Shown here: positions 12,476 to 47,341 of the stretch, piece after piece
Numbering within the stretch: position 1 is the stretch's first letter
Layout: each line of letters begins with the position of its first letter
From: a virus
IMG/VR virus record: IMGVR_UViG_3300047548_000777
Coordinates: 13,592-77,591 of that record
Direction: 5' to 3' (one strand)
Length of the DNA: 64,000 nt
The notes under the pieces: model-generated
What the model was told of the DNA's origin: nothing
The model's input: the letters and a program-made list of their open reading frames with translations, nothing else
Databases searched by the model: none
Translations under genes and position numbers: made by a program

Positions 12476-14088
12476 TGTCAACAACAACATTTTTTTATGA
12501 TGGTCAAATTAGAAGATACCTTTTGCAAATAGTTAGACTACTAAGCAACTTTGCAGTAAAATATACTGATGGGACCTTGGTTCGAATTCCTGTAATATAT
12601 GGAGATGCTGACAGGCAAGTAGCGCATATTATAAATCAAAACAGTGAAAATACCGTACAAAGTGCACCAAAGATCGCAATTTATATGGCAGATCTAGAGC
12701 TAGATACTAGCAGGCTTGCTGATAGTAGCCATGTAGGTAAAGTGCATGTTAGAGAACGGGCATACAATGAGCAGACACAAAGCTACGAAAATTATCAAGG
12801 AAACAGTTATACAGTCGAACGGTTAATGCCGACACCATATAAGCTCACAGTCAAAGTAGATATTTGGTCTACCAGTATAGATCAAAAATTACAAATACTA
12901 GAGCAAATACTAATGTTGTTTAATCCTAGTTTAGAAATTCAAACTAGCGATAACTATATTGATTGGACTAGTCTAAGTGTAGTGGATTTGACCTCTGTTG
13001 TGTTAAGTTCAAGAAGTGTACCCGTCGGTACTGCCGCAGAGATTGATATTGCTACGTTAACCTTGGCAACTCCCATATGGATTAGTCCTCCTGCCAAAGT
13101 AAAACGGCTAGGTGTTATTACTAATATTATATCGAATATCTTTACCGATAAAACTGATCAATATGGTGATTATATTGAAGGGTTAGGTGTAGACTCTTCG
13201 GCAACATATGCCTCTCCAGCAGGATCACCTGTGGCATCGTTCAGTTCTGCAACAGCAAACTATGACATCGAAGTCACTGGAAATTCAGCAAAATTATTAG
13301 GATTTGAGAATCAATATCCTAGATGGAATAATATCGTTAATAAATTCTCTGGAGTTTATACAGCAGGTTTAAGCAGAATTTATTTAAAAATACCTAGCGG
13401 AAACAATGTAGTTGGCACGTTTAGCTTAAATCCGCTAGACGATTCATTGCTAACTATTAACTGGGACGTTGATACTTACCCCACCAATACCTCAGTATAT
13501 AGTATAAACAGATCATCTACCACAACATTTGATGCCATCATTGATCCTACACGAACTGGTCCGAGGGATTCTAATCTACCTAAATTAAAACAAGGATCTA
13601 GGTACTTAATTGTTGATAAAATAGGAAATAGCATTAAGGAAACGTTTGTATCCGAAACAAAGATACAGAGAATTAATACCAACACCCTGTATAAAGATGT
13701 AGTTGATCATAAAATTTTAGTCAACGGAATTGAGGTAGGCTCCGGAAATGCACGAATACCAGATGATCTTAATACGGGGAATTACTATATTTTATTGGAT
13801 GAATTTGCACCTGCTGGCGCAGAAATTACGTATGAACTTTATACCAATGTTGACGGGCCAGAATCTTGGAAGAATAATGACGGTAGCGATTTTACAGCCA
13901 ACGAAAATGATATAATAGAGTGGGATGGTGATAAATGGAATATTGTTTTCAACTCTTTAAAGGCACAGGATCAAATAGTTTATCTATCAAACATTTTTAC
14001 CAATACACAGTATATGTGGAATGGGGTACATTGGAGTAAGAGTTTTGAAGGTATTTATAGAGCCGGAGAATGGCGCCTTGAACTTTAA
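12475..14088 (+). CDS. gp15: Tail terminator / sheath stabiliser (T4 gp15-like) with C-terminal extension
   Basis: FFYDGQIRRY, IPVIYG, P.PY.L...VDIW and QILEQIL.LFNP motifs. Follows the gp14-like gene. Confidence 0.85.
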   Translation: MSTTTFFYDGQIRRYLLQIVRLLSNFAVKYTDGTLVRIPVIYGDADRQVAHIINQNSENTVQSAPKIAIYMADLELDTSRLADSSHVGKVHVRERAYNEQTQSYENYQGNSYTVERLMPTPYKLTVKVDIWSTSIDQKLQILEQILMLFNPSLEIQTSDNYIDWTSLSVVDLTSVVLSSRSVPVGTAAEIDIATLTLATPIWISPPAKVKRLGVITNIISNIFTDKTDQYGDYIEGLGVDSSATYASPAGSPVASFSSATANYDIEVTGNSAKLLGFENQYPRWNNIVNKFSGVYTAGLSRIYLKIPSGNNVVGTFSLNPLDDSLLTINWDVDTYPTNTSVYSINRSSTTTFDAIIDPTRTGPRDSNLPKLKQGSRYLIVDKIGNSIKETFVSETKIQRINTNTLYKDVVDHKILVNGIEVGSGNARIPDDLNTGNYYILLDEFAPAGAEITYELYTNVDGPESWKNNDGSDFTANENDIIEWDGDKWNIVFNSLKAQDQIVYLSNIFTNTQYMWNGVHWSKSFEGIYRAGEWRLEL

Positions 14089-43222: not shown

Positions 43223-43870
43223 TTAAGCAGCAACAGTTAATGTAACCGCATTAGAAGTTACACTAGTAGCACCGGTTGCACTAACAATTACACGATATAG
43301 GTTACCGTCATCCGATGGTTGTAAACCAAGTAATAGTAAGTTATCGTTAGTAGATGCAGTATTACTCCATGTTGCGCCAGAGTCAGTTGAAACTTGCCAT
43401 AGATAAGTTAGTGTAGCACCTTCTGTTACGTTAGCAACGACCGCAAATACAGCTTCTCCATCAGCTGCGGTTTGATCAGTTGGCTGCGATGTAATCGTAA
43501 TGAACGGGGAAACACTGGTTTCAACTTCATCCATTTCTGCCTTTCCATCTGTAATACTACCATCGAATGTCCAAGCATAGCTTACACCGCCGGCGACAAC
43601 TCTATGTGCAGCAATCTTAGTAACTCTTCGAACAACGCCGTCATCAGTTTGTACACTGATAGACATCTCGTTAGCTGCTAACGAACCATCTGCTTTATCT
43701 ACTAAGAAACAATCACCTGTGTTAGCACCAACTGTTACTTTAAATTTTCTGGTACCTCGTTGACTTACAATTCTGCCGTCGCCTTCTGCATTGGCACCGA
43801 TTTTTGCACGAACTTTGATCTGATTACCTGCGCCAGATCCGAAATATCTCTTGTTTAGTGGACGTCCCAT
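43223..43870 (-). CDS. Virion protein with C-terminal Ig-like domain (possible Hoc-like decoration protein)
   Basis: C-terminal ITITSQP.DQT...F.V.A...LTYLWQ.S...DDG..YRVIVS...S..V.LTV Ig pattern. AAGGA SD. Confidence 0.75.
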   Translation of the reverse strand: MGRPLNKRYFGSGAGNQIKVRAKIGANAEGDGRIVSQRGTRKFKVTVGANTGDCFLVDKADGSLAANEMSISVQTDDGVVRRVTKIAAHRVVAGGVSYAWTFDGSITDGKAEMDEVETSVSPFITITSQPTDQTAADGEAVFAVVANVTEGATLTYLWQVSTDSGATWSNTASTNDNLLLLGLQPSDDGNLYRVIVSATGATSVTSNAVTLTVAA

Positions 43871-43882
43871 TTGTTTGATTCC

Positions 43883-43968
43883 TTATAAATAGTATTATGG
43901 ATGTGGGTTCTATCCACTACGGTGTGGGGCACCGTAAGCTATTATCTGTTAAATAGCATCCATTACTA
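43883..43968 (-). ncRNA. Structured 5' leader RNA (four-way junction), copy A
   Basis: P1 AUAGUA-AUGGAU/AUCCAU-A-AUACUAU encloses P2 GCUAUU/AAUAGC, P3 UACGGUG/CACCGUA and P4 GUGG/CCAC. It lies between a late promoter (43969-75) and the SD. Confidence 0.7.
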
Positions 43969-43974
43969 TTATTT

Positions 43975-44649
43975 ATGTATATTAAGATGAATACTCCTTA
44001 CACTTACCTAATCGGATGGTCAGATTTAAATCGTTGGTATTACGGCGTTCGATATTCTAAGAATTGCCATCCAACTGACTTGTGGAATCCGTATAAGACA
44101 TCAAGTAAGATAGTATTAAAATTTATTAAAGATCACGGAGAGCCCGATATTCGAATTGTTCGTCGTACATTTAACAGCGTTAACGAAGCAAGAGTATGGG
44201 AGCATAGAGTTCTATTAAAATTAAACGTCATTAATAAAGAGAAATGGTTGAACGGACATAATACTATTGCGTTTGATATTACATTAGTTCCAAAAGGAGA
44301 TCAACACTGGACTAGAAAGAATCCCGAAAAGTGGGCTAAAATTCAAAAATTTAGAAAATACCAAAAAGGGGAAATGCATTGGACTAATCAAAAAACTGCA
44401 TCGGCGCAACAGCATCGAACGCGAATGAATAGCGAAATGAATCCTAATAATTTTTTACACAACAAGATTTTAAGAAGTGAAAAGTTAAAAATCGATAATC
44501 CTGTTAATTTACCAGGAGTTAAAAATAAAATTAAAGAAACATTAACAGGATATAAGCATCCTCGTAAAATATGCGAGCACTGCGGTAAAGATGTAGCTGA
44601 TTCGATTTATACAAGATGGCACGGAACTAAATGTAAAAATTTAGGTTGA
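43975..44649 (+). CDS. Free-standing homing endonuclease, GIY-YIG-like (Seg-type)
   Basis: YTYLIGW....WYYGVR, Y.TSS, EA..WE..VL and WLN motifs, NP-type DNA-binding repeats, and C-terminal CEHCGK...RWH..KC. Antisense to the operon. Confidence 0.8.
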   Translation: MYIKMNTPYTYLIGWSDLNRWYYGVRYSKNCHPTDLWNPYKTSSKIVLKFIKDHGEPDIRIVRRTFNSVNEARVWEHRVLLKLNVINKEKWLNGHNTIAFDITLVPKGDQHWTRKNPEKWAKIQKFRKYQKGEMHWTNQKTASAQQHRTRMNSEMNPNNFLHNKILRSEKLKIDNPVNLPGVKNKIKETLTGYKHPRKICEHCGKDVADSIYTRWHGTKCKNLG

Positions 44650-44703
44650 CGTTTTAGGTCTACGCTGCGGGGTTACAGCATAAGTCTCGTGTTAAACGAG
44701 CAC
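44648..44703 (-). ncRNA. Structured leader RNA, copy B (orphaned, 3' arm of P1 missing)
   Basis: P2 CUCG/CGAG, P3 UAUGCUG/CAGCGUA and P4 GAC/GUC, with loops matching copy A. Late promoter ATAAATA at 44721-27. Confidence 0.65.
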
Positions 44704-44736
44704 TCAGTTATAGACATATGTATTTATCATATAAAG

Positions 44737-44762
44737 AAAAAGGCTTCCGAAGAAGCCTTTTA
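44737..44762 (-). terminator. Intrinsic terminator (UUCG loop) after the orphan capsid-end copy
   Basis: AAAAAGGCTTC-TTCG-GAAGCCTTTTT on the minus strand. Confidence 0.85.
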
Positions 44763-44783
44763 TTGGGGGTGTTACTCAGTTAA

Positions 44784-44846
44784 TTAACTAAACTTGACTG
44801 CGCCAGAAGCGATAGCAACCTTACCTAAGTAATCTGCGGCATTTCC
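44784..44846 (-). pseudogene. Orphan duplicate of the last 20 codons plus stop of the major capsid gene
   Basis: Encodes GNAADYLGKVAIASGAVKFS*, identical in protein to 46166-46228. 53/63 nt identical and every difference is synonymous. Confidence 0.9.
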
Positions 44847-44856
44847 TACGGAAACT

Positions 44857-45159
44857 TTATAGTGGTAATTGAGAACTAAGTTCTAGTATTCGATCTTTCA
44901 TTTCAATTAGTTCGTTGTTTGTTTTTTCAATATCTGGATCATTTTTATCAGGATAATTGATATTTAAAATACTATCGATTACAGAAATAAATTCCTCAAC
45001 GTTATTTAAAATCATTGCAGATCTAGAAGGAGATCTTAATCTTATCAAAATATTTAAAGATTTTTCAAGTATATCATATGTATGTTTTACAGAATCAATA
45101 TCTACTCCGCGCATGTTAGACCATAATAAATTCTTATCAGTTATTTCAAATATTCTCAC
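44857..45159 (-). CDS. Hypothetical protein (cargo of the endonuclease cassette)
   Basis: AGGAG SD then TTG/GTG. The GTG at 45159 gives MRIFEITDK. AT-rich. Confidence 0.55.
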   Translation of the reverse strand: MRIFEITDKNLLWSNMRGVDIDSVKHTYDILEKSLNILIRLRSPSRSAMILNNVEEFISVIDSILNINYPDKNDPDIEKTNNELIEMKDRILELSSQLPL

Positions 45160-45295
45160 CAAGAGATCTCCTATGCTCTAATTCTTTGATTAGATCCGTT
45201 AAATCAGATTCTGCTTGATGACGCAAATCATTAATTTTTTTGTTTATTTCTCTAATTTTGTTAATTGTATCTTCAGATAAATTTTTATTTTCCAT
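45146..45295 (-). CDS. Small 49-aa coiled-coil ORF
   Basis: Read manually: MENKNLSEDTINKIREINKKINDLRHQAESDLTDLIKELEHRRSLGENI*. Starts 2 nt after the HNH stop. Confidence 0.5.
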   Translation of the reverse strand: MENKNLSEDTINKIREINKKINDLRHQAESDLTDLIKELEHRRSLGENI

Positions 45296-45297
45296 AA

Positions 45298-46065
45298 TTA
45301 TTCCGTTTTAAGTTTACAATTATCCCCGTGCCATCTAGCATATCCATTAACTGCAACTAACTGATTGCAATGAGGGCACTGCTTCTTTTCTCGTTTCATA
45401 TTTAAAGCCCGCTGTGTTTCTGCTCGACGCACAACTACTTCCGGATCTTGTTTTCGCCCAGACAATGATTCACTTATCTTTTTCTTTGTATCTTCTGATA
45501 CATTAATCCCAAATCTATTATTATTTTCTCCTTGTTTAGAAGCAGATAACTTTCCTCTCCATTCTTTAGAAAAAGGCTTGCGTTTTTTTCCTAATTTACT
45601 GGCAGATATCTTCGCTCTTGCCTCTAGTTGTTTAGCACCGTTATTTTCACCGGTAACTGCTGCTCGTTGTCTTTCTGTTCCTTCTGCACTACGGTAAAAT
45701 TTGTCTCCGTACATAGGATTTTTCTCGCCAGAGTATCGTTCACTTTGTAACATAGAGTATTCTTCTTTCAAATTTTCATATACTCTAGCTGTAACTTTTG
45801 TTTTATATCGTTGTTGGCGGGAATTTTCTGCTTGCATCATTCTAAATGCGTTAATCATTTTCCAGTGTGCTTCACCGGTAGGGTATATTTTTGTTAATAA
45901 CCAATGGCATATAAAATGTTCGCGGGCAGTTAAATCAGTTAAATTTTCAATGGAATCATCGCCGCCTAGACTTTTTGGCAGTATGTGATGTTTTTCTGTA
46001 TAACCATCTCTAAGTGCTTTTCCTACAGTTGTAATAGCTACATACCATTTTTTGTATTTGTTCAT
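45298..46065 (-). CDS. Free-standing HNH homing endonuclease with NUMOD3-like repeats
   Basis: EKHHILPKSLGG.D...NL..LTAREHF.CH.LL, G.KNPMYG, SEDTKKKISESLSG and C-terminal CPHC...RWH.DNC. Start moved from 46101 to MNKY (46065), 5 nt after TATAAATA. Confidence 0.9.
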   Translation of the reverse strand: MNKYKKWYVAITTVGKALRDGYTEKHHILPKSLGGDDSIENLTDLTAREHFICHWLLTKIYPTGEAHWKMINAFRMMQAENSRQQRYKTKVTARVYENLKEEYSMLQSERYSGEKNPMYGDKFYRSAEGTERQRAAVTGENNGAKQLEARAKISASKLGKKRKPFSKEWRGKLSASKQGENNNRFGINVSEDTKKKISESLSGRKQDPEVVVRRAETQRALNMKREKKQCPHCNQLVAVNGYARWHGDNCKLKTE

Positions 46066-46070
46066 AACTT

Positions 46071-46121
46071 TATTTATATTCGATAACTCAACATAATACA
46101 TTAAAAATAAAATTAAGTCAA
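46071..46121 (-). promoter_or_regulatory. Tandem sigma70-type and T4 late promoters for the HNH gene
   Basis: TTGACT (46116-21)-17 nt-TATTAT (46093-98), then TATAAATA (46071-78). Confidence 0.65.
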
Positions 46122-46122
46122 G

Positions 46123-46147
46123 AAAAAACCCGCCGAAGCGGGTTTTT
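46123..46147 (-). terminator. Intrinsic terminator (UUCG loop) after the major capsid gene
   Basis: AAAAACCCGC-TTCG-GCGGGTTTTTT. Confidence 0.9.
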
Positions 46148-46165
46148 GATATATTAAATGCTCAA

Positions 46166-47341
46166 TTAAGAGAACTTAACAGCACCAGAAGCAATAGCAA
46201 CCTTACCTAAGTAATCTGCAGCGTTACCTAGAGAGCTAGCAGTATTACTCAATTCCACGTAGCCATATCTCGTCATAAAGCTTACGACTGGTTCGAATGT
46301 AGACGGATCTAGAACAACACCAGAGCTCATTAGAGGAACATATGGGCAATAGAATGCAGCAGCGTCTGCTTCGCTGGAACCCTTATATCCAACTAGGATA
46401 TCAGCGTTATCAGCAGCATATGTGTTAACATAGATCTTCATTGCGTTGTTTAGTGTACCAACGAACTTGGTGTTTGTTGGAGCTTCAAAAGTACCTTCTG
46501 TAGTACGAGCAAATGCACTAGTAGTAGCAGATTGTAGAATTGTTAAAGCTAGTGGGCTAACAACTGCCCAGTTACCTGCGCCACGACGTGTACGCTGAGC
46601 GATTAAGTTAGCAACACGGTTGATCTGAACAGCTAAAGCAGCGTGCTCGTCACCAACGAAAGTAGCAGTACCGCTAACAGCAGACTGGTCATAAGTCTGT
46701 AGAGCAGCACCTGCTAGGTTGTTTAAAGAACCTAGAACTTCTTGATCGATTTCAGCAGTAATTTCTTGTGCTAGAGCAGCCATGATTTCTGCTTCGATAT
46801 CGATACCTTGTTGAGCTTGTGCATCTTGTGCAGCTTCGAAAGTCCAACGTGCGCTTAGTTTGCGTGTCTTGGCTTCGACGGTCTGCTTTAAGATTTGAAT
46901 GCTCATTCTGTTACCAGCAGTACCTTCTAACGCAGCAGTATTAGCAGCCTTAGCAGCATTTGCATTTTGGTTACCAGAATAAGCTTCAGCAATCTTGAAT
47001 GGGCTGAATGCTTCTTCACCAGCTACAACGCCAGCGCCAGTGCTTGTATCACTGTAGCGAACACGTAGAGTATGAATTTGGCCAACTGGACCAGTTAGAG
47101 GCTGAACACCAACTAGTTCGTTAGCAATAACGGTTGGCATAACGCGACGAATAACCGGTAGAATAACACGGTTTAGTGTTGCAACGTTACCAGCAGAAGT
47201 AGCGCCAGCTGTAGCACTTTCTGCAAGATACTTGCGTGTATTTTCTAATGTTACAGCCATTGTGGATTTACGGGTGCCGCGTAGGCCTTCTAATAGGGCT
47301 TCCTTGGTCTCGTTCCAACGGCCAGTGAGTAGTTCTGACAT
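46166..47341 (-). CDS. gp23: Major capsid protein (T4 gp23-like)
   Basis: LP.IRR.MP..IANELVGVQP..GP.G.I, VEAKTRKL.A.WT.E.AQD, EI.AEID.E, YKG..E.DA..FYCPYVPL and FMTRYG. Strong codon bias. Confidence 0.97.
   Translation of the reverse strand: MSELLTGRWNETKEALLEGLRGTRKSTMAVTLENTRKYLAESATAGATSAGNVATLNRVILPVIRRVMPTVIANELVGVQPLTGPVGQIHTLRVRYSDTSTGAGVVAGEEAFSPFKIAEAYSGNQNANAAKAANTAALEGTAGNRMSIQILKQTVEAKTRKLSARWTFEAAQDAQAQQGIDIEAEIMAALAQEITAEIDQEVLGSLNNLAGAALQTYDQSAVSGTATFVGDEHAALAVQINRVANLIAQRTRRGAGNWAVVSPLALTILQSATTSAFARTTEGTFEAPTNTKFVGTLNNAMKIYVNTYAADNADILVGYKGSSEADAAAFYCPYVPLMSSGVVLDPSTFEPVVSFMTRYGYVELSNTASSLGNAADYLGKVAIASGAVKFS

Follow-up and report, generated by a model that had tools for sequence, protein, structure and literature searches.

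Free-standing homing endonucleases such as SegF, SegG and MobE of bacteriophage T4 spread by intronless homing, in the course of which flanking markers are co-converted; we know of no T4 case in which a duplicated gene end was reported to be left behind. Integrase-borne elements bring along their own version of the target gene's 3′ end, with attachment (att) sites in tRNA, tmRNA and protein genes. In fungal mitochondria, mobile endonuclease open reading frames (mORFs) replace the 3′ ends of genes—atp6 in Allomyces macrogynus as well as atp6, atp9, cox2 and nad3 in Glomus sp.—which has been explained by a foreign gene end having been transferred along with the endonuclease (PMC3630166). Furthermore, nuclease genes cluster beside essential phage genes (PMC10448857). 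In this report, we are discussing a 64,000-nucleotide (nt) stretch of viral DNA (“the window”; positions 13,592 to 77,591 of the 77.6-kb IMG/VR record IMGVR_UViG_3300047548_000777, estimated to be 21% complete), in which a putative homing-endonuclease cassette lies between two silently diverged copies of the 3′ end of the major capsid protein gene; all coordinates are window positions. Its architecture comes closest to the fungal mitochondrial C-terminal replacements and its biology closest to phage intronless homing with co-conversion. A phage report of a retained duplicated gene end flanking an endonuclease was not found in a partial literature search.

The capsid gene (46166..47341, minus strand) encodes a Gp23-family protein of 391 amino acids (Pfam PF07068, E 1.4e-99), whose terminus reads ...SSLGNAADYLGKVAIASGAVKFS ahead of the stop codon at 46228-46166. 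These last 20 codons and the stop recur on the same strand at 44846-44784, and the peptide GNAADYLGKVAIASGAVKFS, followed in each case by a stop, is encoded twice. The two copies—tail A (46166..46228), which is translated as the capsid end, and tail B (44784..44846), the orphan—were recovered by translation as well as by a repeat search, in which they form a direct repeat, D1, of 67 nt with 85% identity and a spacing of 1382 nt (44782-44848 and 46164-46230), in agreement with the original prediction of one peptide encoded twice, 1382 bp apart. Sequence comparison likewise bears out its claims that the tails differ by 10 nt across nine codons, all silently and including TCT versus AGT for the last serine, and that they share an identical 26-nt core, GCAGATTACTTAGGTAAGGTTGCTAT, at 46194-46219 and 44812-44837. 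The silent differences spare this core, affecting 0 of its 8 codons versus 9 of the 12 codons outside (Fisher p 0.0014). No exact match to the core was present in IMG/VR or among the matches listed for the metagenome collection, the best match among the tails of 61 aligned relatives amounting to at most 24 of 26 nt; nor was the same tail peptide found elsewhere in IMG/VR or among the metagenome contigs listed. An adenine-specific pattern, as left by a diversity-generating retroelement, is absent among the 10 differences.

Tail B begins 10 nt past orf101, the last gene of the cassette, and is out of frame with it. Its own frame is open for only 12 codons upstream, a stretch that holds no ATG, GTG or TTG, and the orphan copy thus lacks a start codon, as had been predicted; from the absent start codon and the frame, tail B is judged to be an untranslated remnant. 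A frameshift fusion of orf101 with tail B is unsupported, given the 10-nt distance, the differing frame and the fact that the orf101 homologues of two related loci, L184 and L185 (related loci are referred to by their L numbers), end immediately 5′ of a terminator. Among 225 related loci, the window is the only one to retain a full coding tail, and no comparable orphan tail was found in this set except for a short, nearly identical remnant in L103.

The manner in which the tails diverged is informative with regard to their history. In none of 400,000 simulations did ten random substitutions all turn out silent, and the silent-only divergence therefore excludes neutral decay of a duplicate formed in place. 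The original prediction had concluded that both copies were recently under protein selection; the silent-only divergence fits two working tails, but “recently” cannot be dated. Natural pairs of tails with identical peptides show 1-13 silent codon differences, and silent divergence on the scale seen here (9 of 20 codons) is what capsid genes 13-15% apart in protein typically show. A generally faster silent evolution of the tail can be dismissed, since its silent divergence tracks that of the gene body. When the last 20 capsid codons are scored against the codon usage of their own gene body, the codons of tail A are all capsid-typical (z +1.33, top 2% of tails), while tail B is codon-atypical (z −2.3, bottom 1.4% of endonuclease-free tails).

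The 1382-nt insert comprises, in this order, terminator A, a promoter, an HNH/NUMOD3 endonuclease gene, orf49, orf101 and a 10-nt junction, i.e., three open reading frames (ORFs) together with 64 and 10 nt of non-coding sequence. The endonuclease gene (45298..46101, minus strand) matches the homing-endonuclease family PHROG 655 (E 8.6e-44); its product scores 35.3 bits against NUMOD3 (PF07460; cut-off 20.4), whereas HNH models match weakly and below their cut-off (19.3 vs. 22), although an HHILPK...ENL...REH motif is visible in the protein sequence. Relatives align from MNKYKKWY, and the true start is probably the ATG at 46065. The small gene orf49 (45146..45295, minus strand) has a 39% identical homologue at the same position in L184 and L185, and orf101 (44857..45162, minus strand) has 33-39% identical homologues past the capsid gene and endonuclease in L180-L185; the complete HNH-orf49-orf101 module is found again in L184 and L185. 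The 10-nt junction AGTTTCCGTA (44847..44856, minus strand), leading from the orf101 stop to tail B, shares only TA with the sequence preceding tail A and may represent an illegitimate joint.

The position of this cassette is a recurrent one. Relatives of the HNH gene lie 60-125 nt past the capsid gene in 16 of 17 IMG/VR loci, whose capsid genes are 73-85% identical, and they sit behind a terminator that is mostly followed by a TTGAC promoter. L096 and some 20 loci from a second capsid clade show the same placement, and in all the HNH gene has this position in about 40 related loci. Among 160 of the closest capsid loci, only L096 carries HNH and 12 have a minimal empty site, while the second clade comprises 20 loci with and 43 without the endonuclease. 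The HNH cassette that had been predicted is accordingly real, as profile matches, the recurring site and the module in relatives attest, and the insert is a putative site-specific, free-standing homing-endonuclease cassette, present in some relatives and absent from others. By the same comparison, the endonuclease family is specific for a site just downstream of Gp23-type capsid genes in a group of large aquatic phages that is itself widespread. The same post-capsid site is occupied in L236 (3808-4602) by a GIY-YIG-type endonuclease (MKHFIYKTTHTNGKYYIGRH...), a close relative of which is followed by an orf101 homologue in L180.

Other types of mobile element do not account for the insert. Searched up to an E value of 1, the region 43800-46600 yielded no score for Rfam intron families; there is no space for a ribozyme core and the capsid ORF is complete without splicing, which rules out a group I or group II intron. 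An integrase island with att duplication is rejected as well: no integrase or recombinase domain was found in any cassette protein, and the repeat is 85% identical rather than an exact core bounded by the ends of the element. There is nevertheless a likeness to integrase-borne elements, in that the element's own copy restores the interrupted gene end and a direct repeat stands at the other end; the differences are the lack of an integrase or recombinase in or near the cassette and the silent divergence of the repeat, which is not an identical att core. The likeness to mORFs goes further, since there, too, a replacement C-terminus in frame is followed by the endonuclease gene and then, downstream, by an untranslated other C-terminal copy, the two copies diverging far more in DNA than in protein. 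However, in the present case (i) the host is a double-stranded DNA phage and the gene that of the major capsid protein, (ii) the endonuclease is of the HNH/NUMOD3 rather than the LAGLIDADG or GIY-YIG type, (iii) the cassette forms a transcription unit of its own, set off by a terminator and a promoter, instead of an in-frame extension, and (iv) two extra small genes travel along and the peptides are 100% identical.

Which of the two tails is native can be approached via their flanks, for which the usual layout of the locus serves as the reference. The capsid gene is 70-71% identical in nucleotide sequence to those of PA5oct- and Rak2-like jumbo phages; the nearest capsid proteins (P0002-P0006) are 95-97% identical, hundreds of aquatic metagenome contigs encode capsid proteins that are 80-97% identical, and a metagenome scan for relatives of the capsid gene gave none closer than 90% among the matches listed. 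The canonical gene order is scaffold protein, capsid gene, p215 and p400. In the window, p215 (43223..43870, minus strand; MGRPLNK...; PHROG 613 head protein, E 3.6e-10) is the next virion gene, which normally starts 160-220 nt past the capsid gene; in the 12 empty-site relatives, tblastn places the gap at just 159-220 nt. This spacer holds a terminator (UUCG or similar), a (G/T)NTAAATA late-promoter-like element and a structured leader RNA of the freshwater-2 family.

A UUCG-loop hairpin and a U tract lie downstream of each tail in the window, and the prediction of an own terminator for each copy was upheld by folding (−14.9 and −13.2 kcal/mol, z −3.5 and −2.9); the spacers and terminators past the two tails are mutually unalignable. 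Terminator A (AAAAACCCGCUUCGGCGGGUUUUUU, 46122..46147, minus strand) is of a type that also stands 5′ of the HNH gene in L167, L168 and L185, with a close variant in L096, and 3′ of the capsid gene in L156. It is followed by a sigma-70-like promoter for the cassette (TTGACT-17-TATTAT, 46093..46121, minus strand, 10/12 matches), and, starting 19 nt past the tail A stop, the A side is 71% identical over 434 nt to the HNH-bearing L096, reaching into the HNH gene. On the B side, terminator B (AAAAGGCUUCUUCGGAAGCCUUUU, 44738..44761, minus strand) resembles those of L031, L083 and L158, and is followed by the late-promoter-like element GATAAATAC (44720..44728, minus strand), which occupies the same place between terminator and leader in empty-site relatives and may function as a late promoter, and by a putative copy of the freshwater-2 leader (copy B, 44632..44701, minus strand; Rfam RF02980, 29.2 bits, model positions 1-70 of 84). 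The order terminator, GATAAATAC, leader in this segment B is canonical. Tail B and the 150 nt downstream of it align in one piece with the empty-site loci L158 (75% over 214 nt) and L031 (72% over 220 nt), and leader copy B is nearer to L158 and L031 than leader copy A. In the simplest history, segment B would be a remnant of the original intergenic region. The original prediction had left open which copy is native; the question is no longer fully open, since the flanks of B match empty sites, L158 and L031 most closely, and those of A match HNH loci. The tails themselves are about equally far from every available relative (53 vs. 51 of 63 positions to L083).

The target of the endonuclease was approached through synonymous recoding of the capsid gene end, measured by the above score. 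In a first set of relatives, the median tail z was −3.7 in 23 endonuclease carriers versus +0.2 in 147 loci to which tblastn with few query proteins assigned no endonuclease (Mann–Whitney p 3e-10); some of these controls may hide other nucleases, making the tests conservative. The second clade, with −3.9 in 20 carriers versus +0.24 in 43 others (p 4e-9), serves as a within-clade control in which both groups often have identical peptides, and this control, together with de-duplication, lessens the effect of kinship among loci that are not phylogenetically independent. In this clade, the recoded tract starts abruptly at the TRYG(Y/F)VEL codons and extends to the stop, the codons upstream being alike: the TRYG patch has a median score of −5.87 in 31 carriers versus +0.37 in 36 others (Mann–Whitney p 2e-10), compared to −2.04 versus −2.49 (p 0.95) for the 20 codons 5′ of the patch. 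The TRYGYVEL patch of the window (ACG AGA TAT GGC TAC GTG GAA TTG, 46250..46273, minus strand; ACGAGATATGGCTACGTGGAATTG) scores −11.07, below all 147 endonuclease-free relatives, while in the window's clade the patch DNA is nearly invariant in the absence of an endonuclease (consensus ACACGTTATGGTTATGTTGAGCTA). AGR arginine codons occur at the patch in 18 of 38 distinct carrier sequences versus 13 of 169 others (p 5e-8).

From this pattern, positions 46250-46273 are the probable recognition or cleavage region of the endonuclease, and the silent changes at the patch may protect carriers, i.e., confer immunity. Cleavage near the SSLGNAADY codons, which had been suggested originally, would probably lie too far downstream; the recoding points to TRYGYVEL, 24-45 nt upstream. 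Two classes of carriers can be distinguished: in L096 and L164, recoding is confined to the patch and the tail is codon-typical, like the A side of the window, whose favoured codons match this class, whereas L180, L184 and L185 are recoded up to the stop and have GGA/GGT AAT GCC at the GNA codons, as does tail B with GGA AAT GCC. The worst “negative” outlier of the second clade was L236, which has the strongest tail recoding seen (z −8.2) and proved to carry the GIY-YIG endonuclease mentioned above. Recoded capsid ends beside HNH or GIY-YIG genes (L163-L265, L180/L184/L185) often use the rare codons AGA/AGG, GGG, ATA and GCC. L237, L263 and L195 are mildly recoded with no endonuclease detected by the same assignment; they may be former carriers.

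In several respects, this resembles homing of the T4 type: the endonuclease gene is free-standing, has its own promoter, is intergenic and lies beside an essential, conserved gene; some relatives have it and others do not; the carrier would be protected by base differences in the target, and flanking DNA would be co-inherited. Unlike in T4, the protective differences would here consist of a synonymous recoding of the last ~33 capsid codons, common to clades that are 73-85% identical.

A second endonuclease gene has a similar setting at the other end of the orphan segment. HEG2 (43975..44649, plus strand), convergent with the cassette genes, encodes a putative homing endonuclease, as judged from its match to the homing-endonuclease family PHROG 314 (E 1.8e-4). 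Its N-terminus is GIY-YIG-like, and at its C-terminus lies a CxxC...RWHG..CK module that the HNH protein also possesses; Pfam searches revealed no nuclease domain in it, and a pattern search of IMG/VR yielded no relatives. HEG2 is bracketed by two diverged putative freshwater-2 copies, of which the truncated one is innermost: leader copy B stops at model position 70, where the 3′ end of HEG2 begins, and past HEG2 a complete late promoter, a complete leader copy A (43868..43956, minus strand; RF02980, 45.2 bits) and p215, which copy A directly precedes, are found. Both window copies score below the gathering score of the family (49.9 bits), which is exceeded (51-75 bits) 5′ of the p215 homologue in 10 of 12 relatives, namely L031, L053, L083, L090, L096, L156, L158, L180, L184 and L185. 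These occurrences place the orphan motif freshwater-2 in a defined genomic setting, that of a leader of phage late genes.

The HNH protein and HEG2 thus combine different N-terminal nuclease parts with a common C-terminal C..C...Y.RWHG..CK module, which also ends the endonucleases of related loci and is visible in the DNA as a 30-nt inverted repeat of 80% identity (I1, 44608-44637 / 45313-45342), seen also by tblastn; this suggests a DNA-binding domain that is shuffled between nuclease types. Elsewhere in the window, two adjacent nuclease-like genes at 59507-60813 (minus strand) have similar N-termini, MTWMYNNNIVEHIPPGS and MCWYHNNILIESLPENC; one encodes 151 amino acids with a GIY-YIG-like GFVYIITN...KYIGKK motif, the other 284. 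This pair seems to be of another kind than the arrangement at the capsid tail.

The explanation that we favour, and regard as more probable than its negation, is an acquisition that was homologous on one side and illegitimate on the other, by which an endonuclease-linked capsid 3′ end was joined to the resident genome and the resident tail became an orphan. The order of events that we infer is as follows. The endonuclease would cut naive capsid genes in the TRYG(Y/F)VEL codons, about 80-105 nt 5′ of the stop, and repair off a carrier genome would copy the stretch between the cut and the cassette, including the capsid tail and its terminator, both of which must be copied along because the cut lies upstream of the tail and the cassette downstream of the terminator. 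At the capsid-side end, homologous recombination would have imported the donor's terminator A along with its recoded patch and tail A. At the opposite end, an illegitimate joint immediately past orf101 would have connected the cassette to codon −20 of the resident DNA, and the resident's tail B, together with terminator B, the late promoter and the leader RNA, would have been left behind as a remnant that is not translated. Codon −20, with which the orphan starts, lies 24-45 nt beyond the patch, and limited resection of the far end, followed by the illegitimate joint after orf101, would yield this distance. The same product would alternatively arise if a genome with the cassette and one lacking it underwent an illegitimate crossover. 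HEG2 would have entered likewise from the opposite side, carrying with it a promoter and a leader copy that serve the downstream gene; each endonuclease would have come in from an outer conserved gene and replaced the adjacent functional element. That the tails differ only silently would follow from both having evolved as working capsid ends in separate genomes. A later gene conversion across codons 4-14 probably made the 26-nt core identical; such a patch would account for the core and for some of the peptide identity, and the kinship of a co-infecting donor and resident would explain more.

Other loci, too, have flanking duplications at this site. A terminator repeat of 21 nt is present in L185 and one of 25 nt in L164, and in L103 a repeat of the capsid gene's last 19 nt together with spacer and terminator flanks an inserted gene. 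The latter locus (L103:5100-7200) holds, after the capsid gene, a gene for 616 amino acids (DUF7487; weak REase_MTES_1575 and HTH matches) and a 522-amino-acid paralogue; the nearly identical repeat brackets the 616-amino-acid gene, and the stop-codon region is deleted in its downstream copy.

Several observations speak against a one-sided acquisition of this kind. Cutting by the endonuclease would not be expected if tail B stems from an allele that was recoded and immune, and the illegitimate joint may then owe nothing to cleavage. Among the relatives compared, no donor or empty-site genome is close enough to settle the origin, and the structure rests on a single metagenome assembly. The peptides are, moreover, more alike than expected: gene pairs at this silent divergence have tails that differ by 5-6 residues on average, identical tails occur in only 0.7-1.5% of such natural pairs, and tail residues 13-16 vary even among 95-97% identical capsid proteins, the window differing from these. 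Peptide identity despite silent divergence therefore requires the conversion patch, kinship of donor and resident, or selection for compatibility. Finally, copy A has the more preferred codon at 9 of 9 differing positions, which confirms the predicted use of the capsid gene's favoured codons by the active copy and looks directional.

This directionality, with the tails at opposite extremes of codon typicality, and the identical peptides within a hypervariable stretch would be accommodated by an in-place duplication, in which the cassette entered by duplicating the last 67 nt of the resident gene, selection on the most highly expressed gene subsequently brought the translated copy back to preferred codons, and the orphan is a fossil of an earlier recoded, endonuclease-linked tail. 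Near-identical flanking duplications do exist in L103, L164 and L185, and recoded tails are usual beside these endonucleases. We still consider this course unlikely: it needs about 10 silent changes fixed in A and none in the 63 unconstrained bases of B, among them ATC→ATT and AGT→TCT, which bring little or no codon gain, the latter requiring two steps via a non-synonymous intermediate, while GCA and TAC in the core were left unoptimised. In addition, the spacers and terminators past the copies cannot be aligned, and the analogous leader duplication at HEG2 clearly joins diverged alleles. Selection might instead have kept the recoded pair for the benefit of cassette or phage, its low identity preventing deletion between the repeats, segment B serving as private homology arms for both endonuclease genes, and the core permitting occasional precise excision that leaves an intact capsid gene. 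The clustering of silent differences outside a perfect core agrees with such a design, as does the colinearity of segment B with naive genomes, and excision via the core, a possibility already raised in the original prediction, would give a product that encodes the same peptide and restores the canonical empty layout. However, the lack of a comparable orphan tail in the 225 related loci means that the arrangement is not a conserved cassette feature, and an untranslated copy is free to lose its peptide, divergence being easier via any mutation in copy B; we rate this design as highly improbable.

The least probable of the explanations considered is a chimera, for which an assembler would have merged two co-occurring strains with and without the cassette, no single genome having both tails. 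The record is single and metagenome-derived, and no second assembly of the junction was found in IMG/VR or among the metagenome contigs listed. Fold-back chimeras joined exactly in the capsid tail are, furthermore, seen in L003 (1900-2100) and L048 (2950-3100), where the 3′ ends of two different capsid genes abut within the GNAADYLGKV codons beside the palindrome TACCTAGGTA, probably as an assembly artefact. Against this, a chimera caused by shared k-mers would switch inside the shared core, whereas the joint of cassette and tail B lies outside it, 9 nt 5′ of the core in the B-specific bases GGAAATGCC; only TAGG is common with the context of copy A, leaving no shared k-mer able to cause the switch. 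The same bracket architecture is shown independently by HEG2, and comparable flanking repeats exist in unrelated contigs.

Beyond this single locus, we tentatively propose, as a possibility that we would not yet bet on, that post-capsid cassettes carry the recoded last ~33 capsid codons as a working part—immunity determinant and left homology arm at once—and move by gene-end swap between 73-85% identical capsid genes, requiring neither intron nor intein; the window would then be a rare intermediate that keeps the displaced end. Given the favoured one-sided acquisition, it would be a phage counterpart of the fungal mitochondrial gene-end swaps. While homing normally erases its own tracks, both gene ends would be kept here, and the joint and the co-converted tract could be read directly. 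For an endonuclease family of uncultured phages, a testable target is predicted, ACACGTTATGG(T/A)TATGTTGAG, with immunity via silent changes. Capsid genes serve as phylogenetic markers, and a foreign or recoded 3′ end of ~100 nt, as well as duplicated tails, can mislead trees, primers and assemblers; elsewhere, too, local codon atypicality at a gene end may reveal a present or past association with an endonuclease. If the proposal is true, gene-end replacement homing, so far known from fungal mitochondria, would offer selfish nucleases a general way to reshape the best-conserved structural gene of large phages, and codon-atypical gene ends would be a searchable footprint of past invasions.

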